From the NCBI RefSeq assembly GCF_054482595.1, contig NZ_CM137008.1: DNA of 64,000 bases. One strand, written 5' to 3'. Made by a program: the position numbers and the translations under genes. The notes beneath the pieces are model-generated. The model made no database searches. It saw only the letters and a program-made list of their open reading frames with translations, and was not told where the DNA came from. Below, in pieces: positions 4,107 to 43,251 of this stretch (positions within the stretch are counted from its first letter, which is position 1; each line of letters starts with the position of its first letter).

Positions 4107-4196
4107 CGGAGAGATGCCGGAGCGGCTGAACGGACCGGTCTCGAAAACCGGAGTGGGGGCAACTCCACCGGGGGTTCAAATCCCCCTCTCTCCGCC
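4107..4196 (+). tRNA. serU: tRNA-Ser (CGA), 90 nt with long variable arm; 3' part is the phage attachment core
   Basis: GGAGAGATGCCGGAGCGGCTGAACGGACCGGTCTCGAAAACCGG...GGTTCAAATCCCCCTCTCTCCGCCA; anticodon loop CTCGAAA. Confidence 0.9.
4135..4196. repeat. attL core: 62-bp direct repeat (2 mismatches) shared with attR
   Basis: cggtctcgaaaaccggagt[g/a]ggggcaactc[c/t]accgggggttcaaatccccctctctccgcca found at 4135-4196 and 43190-43251. Confidence 0.85.
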
Positions 4197-4243
4197 AAAA
4201 TTCAATCACTTACACATCATTAAGTCAGTGACAAAAATCACAC

Positions 4244-4278
4244 TTGGAATTACTTGGAATATTTTCTTGGAATATTTT
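4244..4278. promoter_or_regulatory. Three direct copies of TTGGAAT(ATTTTC): candidate integrase arm-type binding sites (P' arm)
   Basis: Copies at 4244, 4254, 4267; same motif at 43079-43089 and inverted at 43141-43150 near attR; overlaps int 3' end. Confidence 0.4.
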
Positions 4279-5275
4279 CAGGTAACGGGACATCAAGTGT
4301 TGGTGAAACTTTAACCTTCCTGTCATAGATTAGCACTTGCCCTTCGGTTTTGTGACCAGAGAAAAGTTGCTTATCCCGGCTGCTTCCTTCATAGTCTGAA
4401 ATTCCTTTCGCCTTCAGATCATGAAAGGTGAAGTCGGTTAAAATACCTGAAATTTTTCCAGCACGATTTCTTGCATCTACCCACATTTCGTTAAAGCCTT
4501 TGTACATATATCGGTTGCCGTATTGATTGCTGATCACATAGGCAGATTTTGGTAACTGTTTTGCTTTTTCGATCGCTGCCTGTAATCGTGGACTCCATGC
4601 TTTTATCTGTTTTTTTCCGGTTTTCCCTTGCTGGATGAATATCCCGTCGTTTCCAATCTGTTCCCATTTCAGCGATAACACATCGGAAACCCTCGCTGCA
4701 CACAGATAGGCAATTTCCATTGCGATAAAAACAGGAAGAGGTGCAACGCTTAATACTGCCTGGTATTCTTTGTCGGTTACATATCGTTCGCGGTTTTTGG
4801 CCTTGAATTTACTTACACCTGCACATGGGTTAGCCTTCACGTACCCTCGCTCATACCCCCAACTGTAAACACGGGACATACTGCTTTTTTCATGGTTGGC
4901 TTGCGTTTTACTCTGCTCCCCTCTTTTGTCCATGTATCGACGGATGTGTTCTGGTTTTATGGAATCCGCTGGTACCTTACCGAATACGGCAAGCAACTTT
5001 TTTTGATGTTGCAGATAATCTTTTTGTGTTCTTGGACTAAGGTCACTGTAATAGGCGCTGGCGAGGAATTTTTCCCACAAGCGACCGAATGTCATTGCAC
5101 GATCGCGATTATTTACAGTTTCCTCATACTTTTTCCATAAAGCAGCTAAACCATCCTTGATGGCGGTTAGTGTGACAGATTCTCTGGATGTTGGTTTCCA
5201 TACATAACTATATTTATTTGGGTATACATTTGGAGGTAATTTTTCGTGTTCAGGATTTTTCCTTCGTCTTCCCAT
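4250..5275 (-). CDS. int: Tyrosine recombinase / phage integrase
   Basis: 341-aa ORF adjacent to attL; C-terminal catalytic region with R...HxLR...Y-type residues (FTFHDLKAKG...LFSGHKTEGQVLIYDRK). Confidence 0.85.
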   Translation of the reverse strand: MGRRRKNPEHEKLPPNVYPNKYSYVWKPTSRESVTLTAIKDGLAALWKKYEETVNNRDRAMTFGRLWEKFLASAYYSDLSPRTQKDYLQHQKKLLAVFGKVPADSIKPEHIRRYMDKRGEQSKTQANHEKSSMSRVYSWGYERGYVKANPCAGVSKFKAKNRERYVTDKEYQAVLSVAPLPVFIAMEIAYLCAARVSDVLSLKWEQIGNDGIFIQQGKTGKKQIKAWSPRLQAAIEKAKQLPKSAYVISNQYGNRYMYKGFNEMWVDARNRAGKISGILTDFTFHDLKAKGISDYEGSSRDKQLFSGHKTEGQVLIYDRKVKVSPTLDVPLPENIPRKYSK

Positions 5276-5478
5276 CAGATCGCACCAAAATTCGGCTCTA
5301 CCTCGCGTGGTGGTAAAGTTTTATTGCAGGTAAATAGATCCCGGCTGACAATCGGTTTGCCACTACGATTGGTATAGAACGGAAGCCCGTTTTCCATTAA
5401 CCATTTTCGCTGGTGGCTTGCATATTTGCAGCCCGTTAATATTTGCAATTCATCTTCGGTTAAAAATAAGCTGCTCAT
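5275..5478 (-). CDS. xis: Excisionase-like small DNA-binding protein
   Basis: 67-aa ORF directly upstream of int with 1-nt stop/start overlap. Confidence 0.6.
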   Translation of the reverse strand: MSSLFLTEDELQILTGCKYASHQRKWLMENGLPFYTNRSGKPIVSRDLFTCNKTLPPREVEPNFGAI

Positions 5479-5536: not shown

Positions 5537-7978
5537 TTAAAAATCAGCCTGACTCGGGATCAGTTTTTGCCAGATAGCTGAAACGTATTTTGCCTGGTAA
5601 CGAGCGTCATCAAGTGCATTATGGCGCTCACCTTCGAATGGAATAGCCGTTCTGGCATCGAAGTCTATGGCTTTCCCCAGCTCAACGATTGTGCGTACAT
5701 CGCGATCGTTGTAGTAACGCCACGGGCAGGGGATCCCCTGCCGTTCGTATGAACGGCGCAAAATCGTGTTGTCGAAGTTGGCTCCATTTCCCCAGACCTG
5801 AACAAAAAATTCACCGGAGTTTTCGTCGATAAATTCCCGCAATTGTAACAGTGCATCATCTAACGGGATTTCATCGGTCATAATGGCAGATTGCGCTTCG
5901 CGTGATTGCTTAAGCCACCATTTAATGGTGTCCCGATCAATGACTCCGCCAGCAGTTTCCAGATCGATAGTCTTACTAAATTCCGGTCCCATATCTCCGG
6001 TTTGCGGATCGAAAAATATTGCACCTATTGAGATGATCGGGGCATCAGGATTTTTTCCCATGGTTTCAAGGTCGATCATTAGATGGTCACACGTCCTGCT
6101 GGTGGATGTGATTTCGTGATGACCGTTCACCTTAATTGAGTGATCTGCCGTCTCGCCAGTTTTATTATCGCTGGCGTGATGCTGATTGCCGCCAGGGTTC
6201 TCCTTGTGTGGATGTTCAGCGCCTTCCATTTCCTCCGGATCATTTTCCTGAACTTCAACCTGATTCTCTTCATCGAATGTTTCCTGGTATGTTGCGTCGC
6301 CCATCACCGCGCCACAATCAGGGCAGTTGACGCCACCGCTCTGACCGCAGGCGGTGCAGACTTTTTCCGGTTCCTGTTGCGCTACTGATTCGGATTGTTT
6401 CGTTTCTGGCTCGTTTTGTAACGCATTTGGGCTGTTTTGTTCCGCTTTTTGGTCGTTCCGTTCCGATTCATGCTGGTTCTGGTTCACAGAATCGCGAGTC
6501 TGGATCCCCTTGACCCATTTCGGATCATTAGGGTCGCTAATCCCCTCAACAAATTCACCACGCGATACAGCAAGTAACTTATCGGCGTCAGGCTGGCTGA
6601 TATTGGCTGCCTGCATAATTTTGTTTACTTCGTCAGCGGTGACTTTTACTTGGTTAGCGGAACTCACCTGCGACTGAGCATCCAGCGACTGCGCGTTCTG
6701 GCCATGTTCAGTTGTATCCGGTTCCATTGTTTCAGTTGTTGCCTGTTCACCTGCCATTGCGTCAGATGGTTGTGGTTTTTCTTCTTCTGTTTCACGCTCA
6801 GTAACCACCTCGCGGTTAATTTCTTCCAGGATATCTTTTTCCGGCGTATGCCGGGCAGCTGTGAGAGTTTCCTTGCTGGGGTTCTCGTGATCAGTTTCCG
6901 TCAAATAGGCGTTGATATACCCCTGAAGGCGTCCCGGGTAGTGATAAAATTCAGGGTGTGCGCTTCGGATAAGTGCAAAAATAGCGGCGCGGGAATAGTC
7001 CAGAATACCCGGGGTTGCACGAAGTGCTGCGGACCATTCTTTGAACGGACTTTCTTTGTTCAGGACTACTTCTTTTGCGCGACGATAAACGCTGCCCGGA
7101 ATTTCATAAATATTAAAATCCATCGGAAGTGTGGCTGCTGCAATCTCCACATCCAGTGTGTCGAGGGTGTGTACTAAATTCGGATTGCGATCGGTTTTGT
7201 TCCCACCGCCAGCATTAGCACCGGAAGCCGTGCGGGTGATGCGTGAAACACGATTTCCTTTCATCCACTCTTTTGTCAGCAGACCCCGATCAGTGTAGTC
7301 AGCGTCCAGGTATGCTTCGAAAAAAGCAGTTATTAGTCCCAGGTCTGAATTACCAGGATTAGGGAAAACTTTGTCAGTGTCACGAACCAGTTTGTGGAGG
7401 TCGCGAATCTCCAGCGAGTCGAGCAGACTGGTTTTATGCGAAATAGCCAGGGCAGTAACAGCCGGTAGTTCTTCAGCCCGTGCAATGTGTAATGCCTGGA
7501 GTTCGTCGCGTGAAACGTGCGTTACTGGTTTTTCGCTGCCGTGTTGAGCAAGCCAACGAATGGGCAGTTCCTGACCGGAGACAGGCAGAAGCATGCTCTC
7601 CTCAATCTCAGTCATGTCTTCGCCGTTGATGTTGGTATTGTCAGTGCTGGCTGGTTTGTCCTGAACAGAGGGGGAAGGGCCGATAAATGTCATTGTGATG
7701 CCATCTTTCCCGCCTTTTTCATAGCGGTTGCAGAATTCAGTATCAAACACGCCTTCTGGCGGAAGGTCGTCAACAACGGGCAAATTGACGCGGACGGGTT
7801 TTTTAAAGTCGTCTTCATCATAATCGTTGTCATCCATTGCGGTAATGCAGCGGGAGATTGCAACAGATAATTTTTTTGCTGTAGTCCAGTAAAAACCACC
7901 TTTAATTCCCAGGCGTTTTCTTACTTTGTCATTTTTTGCTTCGCAATATAGTGCAAATTCTTCTTTATCAGTGCTCAT
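5537..7978 (-). CDS. Large phage early protein with C-terminal DEDDh (DnaQ-like) 3'-5' exonuclease domain
   Basis: 813 aa; C-terminal motifs [21 protein letters not shown]; upstream Cys4 cluster [16 protein letters not shown]; long acidic low-complexity linker. Confidence 0.6.
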
Positions 7979-8071: not shown

Positions 8072-8263
8072 TTAAAATCCTGCCGGGATTTCGTTATTAT
8101 CCTGGTGAATAACTTTATCGACCGGATAACAGTTGCCTGGAATTTTCTGTTCGGTTGCTGCTGCCATACATTCCTGCTTTGTTCTGTGAACACTGACTGC
8201 AATATCAACTGGCTCTCCGGAAACAAGAAAAACCGTCAGAATAAGTGCAAATACTGGATTCAT
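8072..8263 (-). CDS. ydfD: Small secreted/membrane protein, YdfD-like
   Basis: 63 aa MNPVFALILTVFLVSGEPV... with N-terminal hydrophobic segment; start overlaps dicB stop (ATGA). Confidence 0.5.
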   Translation of the reverse strand: MNPVFALILTVFLVSGEPVDIAVSVHRTKQECMAAATEQKIPGNCYPVDKVIHQDNNEIPAGF

Positions 8264-8448
8264 TGTGCACATCCTTTTGGCATCATACGTAAACGGGCCA
8301 GCATTGAAACAATGCATACTTTATTTAATAACTCCCGTTCGTGTTTTCTTTTGTTAATGGCATCTTCAGTAAATACAGGATTACTGATAGTGACACCAAT
8401 TTCAAAACAACCTTCAGACGTATTAACGTTTGGTAATAACGTTTTCAT
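8260..8448 (-). CDS. dicB: Cell division inhibitor DicB
   Basis: 62 aa MKTLLPNVNTSEGCFEIGVTISNPVFTEDAINKRKHERELLNKVCIVSMLARLRMMPKGCAQ, matching my recollection of Qin DicB. Confidence 0.75.
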   Translation of the reverse strand: MKTLLPNVNTSEGCFEIGVTISNPVFTEDAINKRKHERELLNKVCIVSMLARLRMMPKGCAQ

Positions 8449-8617: not shown

Positions 8618-8675
8618 AAAAAGGGCGGCAGAGCAGTCACGGAGTAAAACTGATACCGCCAAACGTCACCAGAAA
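8618..8675 (-). ncRNA. dicF: DicF small RNA (ftsZ-targeting sRNA of the dicB operon)
   Basis: Minus strand reads TTTCTGGTGACGTTTGGCGGTATCAGTTTTACTCCGTGACTGCTCTGCCGCCCTTTTT, matching remembered DicF with terminal hairpin and U-run. Confidence 0.7.
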
Positions 8676-14222: not shown

Positions 14223-14376
14223 AAACGGTTTGCGGGAAAAGGAGAGTTAAGTAGAATTGCAGCGGGTGCTTGAGGCTATCTGTCTCAGGCATGAACACCA
14301 AAAGGCAGATAGAGAAAAGCCCCAGTTAACATTACGCGTCCTGCAAGACGCTTAACATTAATCTGAGGCTCAATCT

Positions 14377-14589
14377 ATGAACGGCAAATCTAGGTTAGCC
14401 TCTTACGTGCCGAAAGGCAAGGAGAAGCAGGCTATGAAGCAGCAAAAGGCGATGTTAATCGCCCTGATCGTCATCTGTTTAACCGTCATTGTGACGGCAC
14501 TGGTAACGAGGAAAGACCTCTGCGAGGTACGAATCCGAACCGGCCAGACGGAGGTCGCTGTCTTCACAGCTTACGAACCTGAGGAGTAA
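14377..14589 (+). CDS. mok: Mok-like leader ORF, in-frame N-terminal extension of hok
   Basis: 70-aa ORF MNGKSRLASYVPKGKEKQA... continuing into the Hok reading frame. Confidence 0.45.
   Translation: MNGKSRLASYVPKGKEKQAMKQQKAMLIALIVICLTVIVTALVTRKDLCEVRIRTGQTEVAVFTAYEPEE
14434..14589 (+). CDS. hok: Hok/Gef-family type I toxin
   Basis: 51 aa MKQQKAMLIALIVICLTVIVTALVTRKDLCEVRIRTGQTEVAVFTAYEPEE; complementary mRNA end elements at 14263-14276 and 14639-14653. Confidence 0.8.
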   Translation: MKQQKAMLIALIVICLTVIVTALVTRKDLCEVRIRTGQTEVAVFTAYEPEE

Positions 14590-18018: not shown

Positions 18019-18094
18019 GGCCCTTTAGCTCAGTGGTGAGAGCGAGCGACTCATAATCGCCAGGTCGCTGGTTCAAATCCAGCAAGGGCCACCA
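18019..18094 (+). tRNA. tRNA with CAU anticodon (Ile2/Met-like)
   Basis: GGCCCTTTAGCTCAGTGGTGAGAGCGAGCGACTCATAATCGCCAGGTCGCTGGTTCAAATCCAGCAAGGGCCACCA. Confidence 0.8.
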
Positions 18095-18095
18095 A

Positions 18096-18172
18096 CCGCC
18101 ACTAGCTCATCAGGAAAGAGCGTCAACCCTTTAAGTTGAGTGTGCGAGGTTCGAGTCCCCGGTGGCGGTCCA
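18096..18172 (+). tRNA. tRNA, anticodon read as UUU (Lys) but loop atypical; identity provisional
   Basis: Acceptor CCGCCAC/GTGGCGG, D and T arms, encoded CCA; anticodon loop CCTTTAA with C at position 33. Confidence 0.55.
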
Positions 18173-18174
18173 GT

Positions 18175-18250
<76 letters not shown>

Positions 18251-18253
18251 TAT

Positions 18254-18328
<75 letters not shown>

Positions 18329-39334: not shown

Positions 39335-42259
39335 GTGAATATGGCAGTAAAGATTTCAGGTGTACTGAAAGACGGCACAGGAAAACCGGTTCAGAACTGC
39401 ACAATCCAGCTGAAAGCAAAACGTAACAGCACCACGGTGGTGGTGAACACGCTGGCCTCAGAAAATCCGGATGAAGCCGGGCGTTACAGCATGGACGTTG
39501 AGTACGGTCAGTACAGCGTTATTCTGTTGGTGGAAGGATTCCCGCCGTCACATGCCGGGACCATCACCGTGTATGAAGATTCCCAACCCGGTACGCTGAA
39601 TGATTTTCTCGGTGCCATGACGGAGGATGATGCCCGTCCGGAGGCTCTGCGCCGTTTTGAACTGATGGTGGAAGAGGTGACGCGTAACGCGTCCGCGGTG
39701 GCACAGAACACGGCAGCCGCGAAGAAGTCAGCCAGTGATGCCGGCACATCTGCCCGTGAGGCGGCAACCCATGCGACTGATGCTGCAGGCTCAGCGCGTG
39801 CAGCCAGCACGTCAGCCGGACAGGCCGCGACTTCGGCTCAGGAGGCGTCTTCCAGCGCAGGAACGGCATCAACAAAGGCCACTGAAGCATCAAAAAGTGC
39901 TGCCGCTGCAGAGTCCTCAAAAAGCGCGGCGGCCACCAGTGCCGGTGCGGCGAAAACGTCAGAAACGAATGCTGCAGCGTCACAAAAATCAGCAGCCACT
40001 TCTGCATCCACTGCGACGACGAAAGCGTCAGAAGCCGCCACTTCAGCCAGAGATGCGGCGGCCTCCAAAGAGGCGGCAAAATCATCAGAAACGAACGCCT
40101 CCACAAGCGCCAGCAGTGCAGCCTCCTCGGCAACGGCGGCAGGAAATTCCGTGAAGGCGGCAAAAACGTCCGAGACGAATGCCAGGTCTTCTGAAACGGC
40201 AGCGGAACAGAGCGCCTCAGCTGCGGCAGACTCTGAGACAGCAGCTGCATCATCGGCCCGTGAGGCGTCCATTAAGGCAGAGGAGGCAGCAGTCAGTGCC
40301 ACCGCCGCCGGAAAATCGGCAGAAAGCGCCGCATCATCCGCTTCAACAGCCACAACGAAGGCTGGCGAAGCCACTGAACAGGCCAGCGCAGCAGCGAGGT
40401 CTGCTTCCGCAGCGAAGACATCCGAAACGAACGCGAAAGCGTCGGAAACCAGCGCAGAATCCTCAAAAACGGCTGCCGCATCGTCCGCCAGTTCGGCGGC
40501 GTCATCGGCATCATCTGCGTCTGCTTCAAAAGATGAGGCGACCAGACAGGCGTCAGCAGCGAGGGGCAGCGCCACGACGGCATCCACGAAGGCGACAGAG
40601 GCTGCTGGCAGTGCGGCAGCGGCAGCACAGAGCAAAAGTACGGCGGAATCCGCGGCAACGCGCGCCGAGACAGCAGCAAAACGGGCAGAGGATATTGCAT
40701 CCGCCGTGGCGCTTGAGGATGCGAGCACGACGAAAAAGGGGATAGTACAGCTCAGCAGTGCGACCAACAGCACTTCCGAGTCACAGGCGGCAACGCCAAA
40801 AGCCGTTAAGGCCGCGTATGACCTGGCTAACGGGAAATACACCGCACAGGATGCAACGACAGCACAGAAAGGGATAGTTCAGCTCAGCAGTGCGACTAAC
40901 AGCACTTCCGAGTCACAGGCGGCAACGCCAAAAGCCGTTAAGGCCGCGTATGACCTGGCTAACGGGAAATACACCGCACAGGACGCTACGACAGCACAAA
41001 AAGGAATTGTCCAGCTCAGTAGTGCAACCAACAGCACATCTGAAACGCTTGCTGCGACACCGAAAGCAGTGAAAGCAGCTAATGACAATGCGAATGGTCG
41101 GGTACCTTCTGCCCGTAAGGTGAATGGTAAGGCGCTTTCAGCGGATATAACACTGACGCCGAAAGATATTGGTACGCTTAACTCAACAACAATGTCATTC
41201 AGCGGTGGTGCTGGTTGGTTCAAATTAGCAACGGTAACCATGCCACAGGCGAGTTCTGTTGTTTCAATTACGTTGATTGGTGGCGCTGGATTTAACGTGG
41301 GGTCACCTCAACAGGCAGGTATATCTGAACTTGTTTTACGTGCAGGTAATGGTAATCCGAAGGGGATTACTGGTGCTTTATGGCAGCGCACATCGACAGG
41401 GTTTACAAATTTTGCCTGGGTCAATACATCTGGTGATACTTACGATATTTACGTTGCAATCGGAAATTATGCGACTGGTGTAAATATTCAATGGGATTAT
41501 ACCAGTAATGCCAGCGTGACGATTCATACGTCACCAGCATATTCTGCTAATAAGCCGGAAGGGTTAACGGACGGTACAGTTTATTCACTCTATACGCCAT
41601 CAGAGCAGTTTTATCCGCCTGGCGCACCAATCCCGTGGCCATCAGATACCGTTCCGTCTGGCTATGCCCTGATGCAGGGGCAGACTTTTGACAAATCTGC
41701 CTACCCGAAACTTGCAGCCGCTTATCCGTCAGGCGTGATCCCTGATATGCGTGGCTGGACGATTAAGGGCAAGCCCGCCAGTGGTCGTGCCGTATTATCT
41801 CAGGAACAGGACGGCATTAAATCGCATACCCACAGTGCCAGTGCATCCAGTACGGATTTGGGGACGAAAACCACATCGTCGTTTGATTACGGCACTAAAT
41901 CCACGAATAACACCGGAGCGCACACCCATAGTGTCAGTGGTACGGCTGCTTCTGCAGGGGCACATACACACACGGTTGCCTGTTACCCATCTGGCAATAC
42001 CGAGCAGGGCGATAAAGCCCTCAAAGGTGCGTCTCGTGCAGGCTCGAGTACTGGCACATCGTCAGCCGGAGCGCATACCCACCCGGTGTCAGGTACTGCT
42101 GCAAGTGCAGGTGCACACGCGCATACTGTCGGTATTGGTGCTCATACGCACTCCGTTGCGATTGGCTCACACGGACACACCATCACCGTTAACGCTGCTG
42201 GTAACGCGGAAAACACCGTCAAAAACATCGCATTTAACTATATTGTGAGGCTTGCATAA
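39335..42259 (+). CDS. stf: Side tail fibre protein with long Ala/Ser/Thr-rich repeat region, three tandem ~41-aa repeats and His-rich C-terminus
   Basis: 974 aa; repeats [25 protein letters not shown]; C-terminal [18 protein letters not shown] repeats. Confidence 0.75.
40735..41100 (+). repeat. Three tandem ~123-bp coding repeats inside stf
   Basis: Units at ~40735, ~40858, ~40981; first two near-identical. Confidence 0.7.
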
Positions 42260-43189: not shown

Positions 43190-43251
43190 CGGTCTCGAAA
43201 ACCGGAGTAGGGGCAACTCTACCGGGGGTTCAAATCCCCCTCTCTCCGCCA
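43190..43251. repeat. attR core: partial serU 3' end (62 bp)
   Basis: Direct repeat of 4135-4196 with 2 paired differences. Confidence 0.85.

Follow-up and report, generated by a model that had tools for sequence, protein, structure and literature searches.

A RecE relative with a predicted DexA-like DEDDh exonuclease head, encoded last in the early-left operon of an Escherichia coli prophage

We analysed a stretch of 64,000 nucleotides (nt) of the Escherichia coli chromosome (contig NZ_CM137008.1 of assembly GCF_054482595.1; hereafter the window) and found in it a prophage gene, at 5537-7978 on the minus strand, whose 813-amino-acid (aa) product is, judged by its sequence, a head-swapped relative of RecE: The RecE N-terminal scaffold is kept, and a DEDDh-type head replaces the 5'-3' nuclease. 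An earlier note on this DNA had described the protein as an exonuclease fused to a four-cysteine (Cys4) cluster and a long acidic linker; the DEDDh domain is indeed there, but the first ~615 residues are the N-terminal region of RecE, which had been overlooked. From this architecture, with its swap point, an intact catalytic pentad, the position of the gene in its operon and the lack of an annealing partner, and drawing also on structure prediction and analogy, we propose that the gene encodes a tethered 3'-5' DNA exonuclease, which would be made on induction and act without an annealase. We put the probability of this reading at roughly 0.55.

The coding sequence is complete, with an ATG start and its stop codon at 5537-5539. 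Its product is 100% identical to protein P0001, the exact protein is present on 511 public contigs, and the length of 813 aa is shared by 118 of the top 120 near-identical matches. The C-terminal head (aa 630-808, 5555-6091, minus strand) is assigned as a DexA-like DEDDh exonuclease domain by four lines of evidence, namely a Pfam match, a DexA profile match, Foldseek and residue conservation. PF16473 ('Rv2179c-like 3'-5' exoribonuclease domain') matches aa 632-803 over practically its full length (expectation value (E) 3.3e-67, model positions 2-177 of 177), and the three DnaQ-like motifs that had been read at the C-terminus are all found inside this match, as DLETMG (636-641), WGNGANFD (729-736) and HNALDDA (786-792). 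The predicted catalytic residues D636 (codon 6071-6073), E638 (6065-6067), D736 (5771-5773), H786 (5621-5623) and D791 (5606-5608) are each at least 96% conserved among 75 cluster representatives.

The AlphaFold2 (AF2) model of the head has a predicted local distance difference test score (pLDDT) above 90 and a DnaQ-like fold, its top Foldseek matches being DexA, RNase T and Orn. The closest solved relative is DexA of phage T4, which was recovered by a single-sequence search (E 2e-6), by the head family profile (E 6e-21 against 8KEL, aligned over DexA 3-196) and by Foldseek with the head model (E 9e-9, template modelling (TM) score 0.66-0.73); oligoribonucleases, RNase T and DnaQ are much more distant, the oligoribonucleases with profile E values of 1e-3 or weaker. 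The head corresponds to a complete free-living protein, because stand-alone members of the family (180-195 aa) start just ahead of MxDxET, with only a few residues in front of this motif. An internal start at M634, from which a free head could be made in this prophage, is preceded by no convincing Shine-Dalgarno sequence.

Everything in front of the head resembles RecE. The NCBIfam RecE equivalog (NF007259) matches residues 1-615 at model positions 1-602 of 877 (935.9 bits versus a cut-off of 1269), and BLASTP against K-12 RecE aligns query residues 58-615 with RecE 50-591 (558 residues) at 58% identity, with nothing beyond. A Pfam match to PF06630 (Exonuc_VIII) covers aa 57-189 (7412-7810, minus strand, E 1.7e-35). 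It lies in a folded RecE-type region at aa 1-397 (6788-7978, minus strand; NCBIfam RecE model 1-429), for which AF2 gives a mean pLDDT of 86 and confidently predicts three sub-domains, at about 5-100, 125-250 and 258-397. This region is followed by an acidic, Gln/Asn-rich tether at aa 399-626 (6101-6784, minus strand), which is predicted to be disordered (most of its residues have a pLDDT below 50) and can be aligned up to RecE 591. The low-complexity stretch of about 250 residues that the note had described is thus present, rich in Glu, Asp, Gln and Asn, but extends over 228 aa, with 45 Asp/Glu versus 15 Lys/Arg and 41 Gln/Asn residues.

Two parts of the tether stand out by their conservation. 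An island at aa 444-495 (6494-6649, minus strand) is kept in RecE and reaches moderate pLDDT at 464-491; its left edge coincides with a mosaic joint with alleles of the type found in phages Tritos and mEp460, whose matches are limited to nt 1330-2442 of the gene. Further on, a zinc-ribbon-like Cys4 motif and the conserved segment after it (aa 541-568, 6275-6358, minus strand) are kept across DEDDh-type, RecE-type and other relatives. The cysteines, which the note had correctly placed upstream of the head, are spaced C541-x2-C544-x7-C552-x2-C555, the RecE counterpart being CNACGQTGGDNCPDC, and zinc-ribbon Pfam matches for this region are weak. Because the Cys4 cluster and the acidic linker both lie within the RecE-homologous stretch, they are inherited RecE features and not novelties.

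According to a 2023 review (PMC11611040), residues 564-866 of RecE form its nuclease domain, and the N-terminal part is of unknown function. Since the homology ends at RecE 591, near the start of this nuclease domain, the swap point is the domain boundary of RecE. The PD-(D/E)XK nuclease domain itself is absent: No Pfam PDDEXK match was obtained for the protein, and tblastn with RecE 588-866 returned nothing in the 64-kb window. We therefore rejected the identification of the gene as RecE itself, as the catalytic domain is missing and the score falls under the curated cut-off. The suggestion that the protein is distinct from characterised recombination exonucleases holds, given that its RecE match excludes the catalytic domain and that no partner is encoded nearby.

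This missing partner is a second difference from Rac-type recE. The note had seen no annealing protein in the neighbourhood, and we likewise found no RecT match by tblastn across the window, no annealase among ten early genes compared with PHROGs, and no annealing protein in the annotation of near-identical genomes. The same holds for three divergent DEDDh-type relatives in other genomes (40-46% identity), whose genes immediately precede xis-int with no annealase gene alongside. A RecE-type relative, in contrast, is followed by RecT, and Rac-type recE places overlap recT. Two-component recombinases combine a 5'-3' exonuclease with an annealase (RecT/Redbeta, Erf, Sak and others); here, the head belongs to the opposite polarity class and no annealase was found. 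As the gene product would thus work without a RecT/Bet-type annealase, we do not expect it to carry out classical exonuclease-plus-annealase recombination.

The genomic position of the gene suggests when the protein would be made. Leftward from the repressor, the gene order is ydfA, ydfB, ydfC, DicF, dicB, ydfD, the exonuclease gene, a DUF4224 gene and the integrase gene, so that the exonuclease gene is the last of the early-left operon ydfABC-DicF-dicB-ydfD; no terminator-like site was found between ydfD and the exonuclease gene. The operon, which is structured as in the K-12 prophage Qin (PMC10448788), includes ydfD and dicB (8072-8448) and the small RNA DicF (8623-8674; Rfam RF00039, 76.7 bits) upstream of the exonuclease gene. 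Directly downstream follow the excisionase-like (xis) DUF4224 gene (5275-5478) and the tyrosine integrase gene (4250-5275), all on the minus strand, which confirms the placement in the early-operon slot next to xis where Rac carries recE/recT. In K-12 Qin, ydfABC-dicF-dicB-ydfDE form one DicA-repressed polycistronic transcript, in which ydfE is uncharacterised (PMC10448788). By analogy, we infer that the exonuclease gene would be expressed only upon derepression of the prophage.

The element as a whole is a lambdoid prophage of ~39 kb, as delimited by 62-nt direct repeats at 4136-4197 (attL, plus strand, in the 3' part of a tRNA-Ser gene) and 43190-43251 (attR), which are 97% identical and adjoin mtfA and yeeJ. 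Its early-right region contains a hok/sok type I toxin-antitoxin locus (14264-14439, plus strand; hokD at ~14377-14589), and four tRNA genes, for Ile, Lys, Thr and Gly according to the annotation of a near-identical genome, lie downstream of the Q antiterminator (18019-18325, plus strand). In the tail-fibre region, where the window also departs from its closest genome, a 132-nt unit is present in three tandem copies (100%, 92% and 64% identity; 40716-41111).

We propose the following mechanism. Once the prophage repressor is lifted, the protein would be made as the last product of the early-left operon. Its head would remove nucleotides from DNA 3' ends with two metal ions, as in DexA, while the RecE-type N-terminal region and the tether would place this head on its substrate, which is probably a DNA end or a partner protein; a RecT/Bet-type annealase would not be needed. 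The likeliest roles would be the trimming or degradation of 3'-ended DNA during lytic growth, either as end processing for replication or annealing, or in order to destroy host or competing DNA. Several observations weigh against this proposal. Neither by fold nor by sequence did PDB or BFVD offer an informative match for the folded region at aa 1-397, and AF2 confidence is low for the zinc-ribbon region. PF16473 is named after an exoribonuclease, and the Prokaryotic Genome Annotation Pipeline (PGAP) often assigns the product name 3'-5' exoribonuclease, so that RNA is a possible substrate. In the recombination of lambdoid phages, moreover, no established role for a 3'-5' polarity is known to us.

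The combination of this scaffold with different heads recurs in other proteins. A 50%-cluster search returned 11,733 relatives, most of which are stand-alone heads (a word-indexed search had yielded near-identical proteins and no diversity). Three kinds of C-terminus are seen among proteins with the N-terminal modules, namely DEDDh (for example P0121, P0126 and P0131-P0135), RecE-type PDDEXK (P0163, P0165 and P0173), or one with no Pfam assignment, and the fusion architecture is kept at 40-60% identity in other genomes. P0138 (814 aa, L013:4001-6996) has an Exonuc_VIII N-terminal region, followed by ~380 C-terminal residues without a Pfam match and then by a Sipho_Gp157 gene; its C-terminus may represent a third head type for this scaffold. 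In P0127 (703 aa), a RecE-type N-terminal region continues straight into a segment of RecT (97% identical to K-12 RecT 84-269), and the nuclease domain appears, from the sequence, to have been deleted.

The gene also occurs in isolated phages, including Tritos, mEp460 and the vB_Eco series. Tritos, mEp460, PPompW and others have only the 3' 46% in common with the gene studied here, at 94-97% nucleotide identity. The 823-aa 'exonuclease' of Tritos and mEp460, which occupies the same dicB-ydfD-gene-xis-int slot, is in its Tritos allele 71% identical over aa 271-812 (95-97% in nucleotides over the 3' 46%), but its first ~260 residues are a non-homologous YdfE-type module, in contrast to the PF06630-type module of our allele. 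The K-12 pseudogene ydfE in Qin (L005:7079-7999), which sits in this slot too, agrees at 99% identity with residues 1-256 of the Tritos protein (L006:4641-7112) and is therefore the IS2-truncated remnant of this DEDDh-headed sister allele. We had also considered ydfE as the N-terminal remnant of the exact allele in the window, and rejected this for lack of any similarity.

The gene is one of the commonest prophage genes of E. coli. In a megablast survey of 5426 complete E. coli genomes, which counts only sequences of ~85% identity or more, the DEDDh head was detected in 4053 genomes (75%) at 8110 places, with up to seven places per genome, the nuclease head of Rac RecE in 1730 genomes at 1827 places, and the N-terminal allele described here (at least 80% covered) in 1282 genomes. 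In public records, the protein goes by 'exonuclease', '3'-5' exoribonuclease' or 'exodeoxyribonuclease VIII'. As the N-terminal region is common with RecE and the catalytic domain is absent, the last of these labels is, on sequence grounds, unjustified, and amounts to a systematic misannotation that affects many records of phages and genomes. Catalogues already contain the sequence and its two domains, and the head-swapped architecture was not found described: Literature searches for ydfE or the Qin exonuclease and for PF06630, PF16473 or Exonuc_VIII yielded no paper on this architecture or its function, and none describing a RecE-type/DEDDh fusion was found in the literature on Rv2179c.

Among the alternatives to a tethered exonuclease of the lytic phase, the one that holds up best, though we consider it unlikely, is an exclusion or defence nuclease that would digest incoming phage DNA containing 5-hydroxymethylcytosine (5hmC) and spare the DNA of the host. 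This idea builds on a recent study of DexA and its stand-alone E. coli homologue EcD, in which digestion of hmC DNA by EcD was reported to confer protection against T4 ('HREX'; Nucleic Acids Research (NAR) 2025, PMC12153337). The head and EcD fall into one DexA-related DEDDh family, and the two are probably members of one clade, because the ends of EcD, compared only as they can be derived from its primers (MIDTET..., ...IPETYD), correspond to the boundaries of the C-terminal domain (MIDLET..., ...LIPSQADF). The EcD primer sequence itself had no match in viral contigs and E. coli genomes, as it probably stems from a synthetic, codon-optimised gene, and no protein with 'MIDTET' was present among 150 representatives. 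Conservation of the gene in three quarters of E. coli genomes, including cryptic prophages, and its shared operon with dicB, a known phage-resistance factor, would also fit a defence function. However, this operon is repressed in lysogens, as judged by its K-12 homologue (PMC10448788), PADLOC defence models gave no match, and the 630-residue RecE-type front part would be left unexplained. Furthermore, the 5hmC-recognition residues of DexA are not both conserved in the profile alignment (W152 corresponds to Y756 and D169 to A770, the register of the loop being uncertain), which means that the Asp proposed to recognise hmC is not retained.

Improbable, in our view, is that the protein serves recombination in the manner of RecE or lambda Exo, together with functions of the host or an annealing protein that has gone unrecognised; 3'-5' resection might, for instance, expose 5' tails by which DNA ends could anneal independently of RecA. 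The operon slot is that of Rac recET and the N-terminal scaffold is that of RecE, and in vivo cloning via short homologies is driven by a 3'-5' enzyme of the host, exonuclease III. Full-length RecE, moreover, is reported to improve linear-linear recombination (PMC11611040). Against this stands that all known exonuclease-plus-annealase systems resect 5'-3', and that both this prophage and the divergent DEDDh-type loci are devoid of an annealase, while RecE-type heads retain RecT.

We regard it as still more improbable that the protein is a 3'-5' exoribonuclease resembling Rv2179c/RNase AS, or a degrader of small nucleic acids such as defence signalling oligonucleotides or the complementary DNA (cDNA) of retrons and defence-associated reverse transcriptases (DRT), and does not act on genomic DNA. 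Such a function is favoured by the names given to the Pfam family and, by PGAP, to the product, and the structural neighbours of the head include oligoribonuclease, REXO2, RNase T and the CBASS-associated exonuclease Cap18; among solved relatives, DexA, a DNA exonuclease, is nevertheless the closest by a wide margin (E 6e-21 versus 1e-3 or weaker for oligoribonucleases), and no Rv2179c structure was among the PDB profile matches at E values up to 1. That the gene is a decaying, functionless remnant of an accidental fusion in a defective prophage, as the IS2 insertion in the K-12 allele ydfE and the cryptic state of many host prophages might suggest, is hardly credible in view of the intact frame, the near-constant length, the conserved catalytic residues, the persistence of the architecture at 40-60% identity elsewhere and the presence of the gene in isolated phages.

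If the protein is a tethered 3'-5' exonuclease, as we favour, its scaffold deserves attention beyond this prophage. RecE/RecT is the workhorse of recombineering, and the head-swapped relative gives a handle on what the ~600-residue N-terminal part of RecE does. As the same scaffold bears a nuclease of opposite polarity, always without RecT, its job would appear to be independent of RecT and of 5'-3' resection. A tentative extension of this thought, which we consider possible but doubtful, is that the RecE N-terminal region and tether form an autonomous targeting or end-holding platform that accepts alternative nuclease heads of opposite polarity. In that case, the DEDDh version, which is commoner in E. 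coli than RecE, would define an undescribed annealase-independent pathway, for which end joining driven by 3'-5' resection, replication priming or the selective destruction of foreign DNA are candidates. A corrected annotation, together with a role for the protein, would change the interpretation of many genomes, including those of Shiga-toxin phages.

The protein can be compared with several known systems. It shares with RecE of the K-12 Rac prophage the N-terminal ~600 residues, a stretch that spans the PF06630 region together with the acidic tether, its island and its Cys4 motif, and both are encoded by late genes of an early-left operon near xis/int; RecE, however, carries a PD-(D/E)XK 5'-3' nuclease and is accompanied by an adjacent recT, whereas our protein has a DEDDh domain and no recT. 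With T4 DexA (exodeoxyribonuclease A; PDB 8KEL/8KEN) it shares the catalytic set of D, E, D, H and D, but DexA is a stand-alone protein of 227 aa from a virulent phage, has extra loops and is only about 21-23% identical to the head. Of the residues involved in the DexA tetramer, the loss of which is taken as a trait of HREX-type exonucleases such as EcD, S87 corresponds in the profile alignment to P705 and D90 to D708, but the family-conserved Ala709 lies one position off. Rv2179c/RNase AS, the founders of PF16473, belong to the same Pfam family, which the head matches over its full length, but they are stand-alone mycobacterial exoribonucleases. EcD, finally, is likewise a stand-alone protein, in contrast to the 813-aa fusion described here, which is encoded in a repressed prophage operon.

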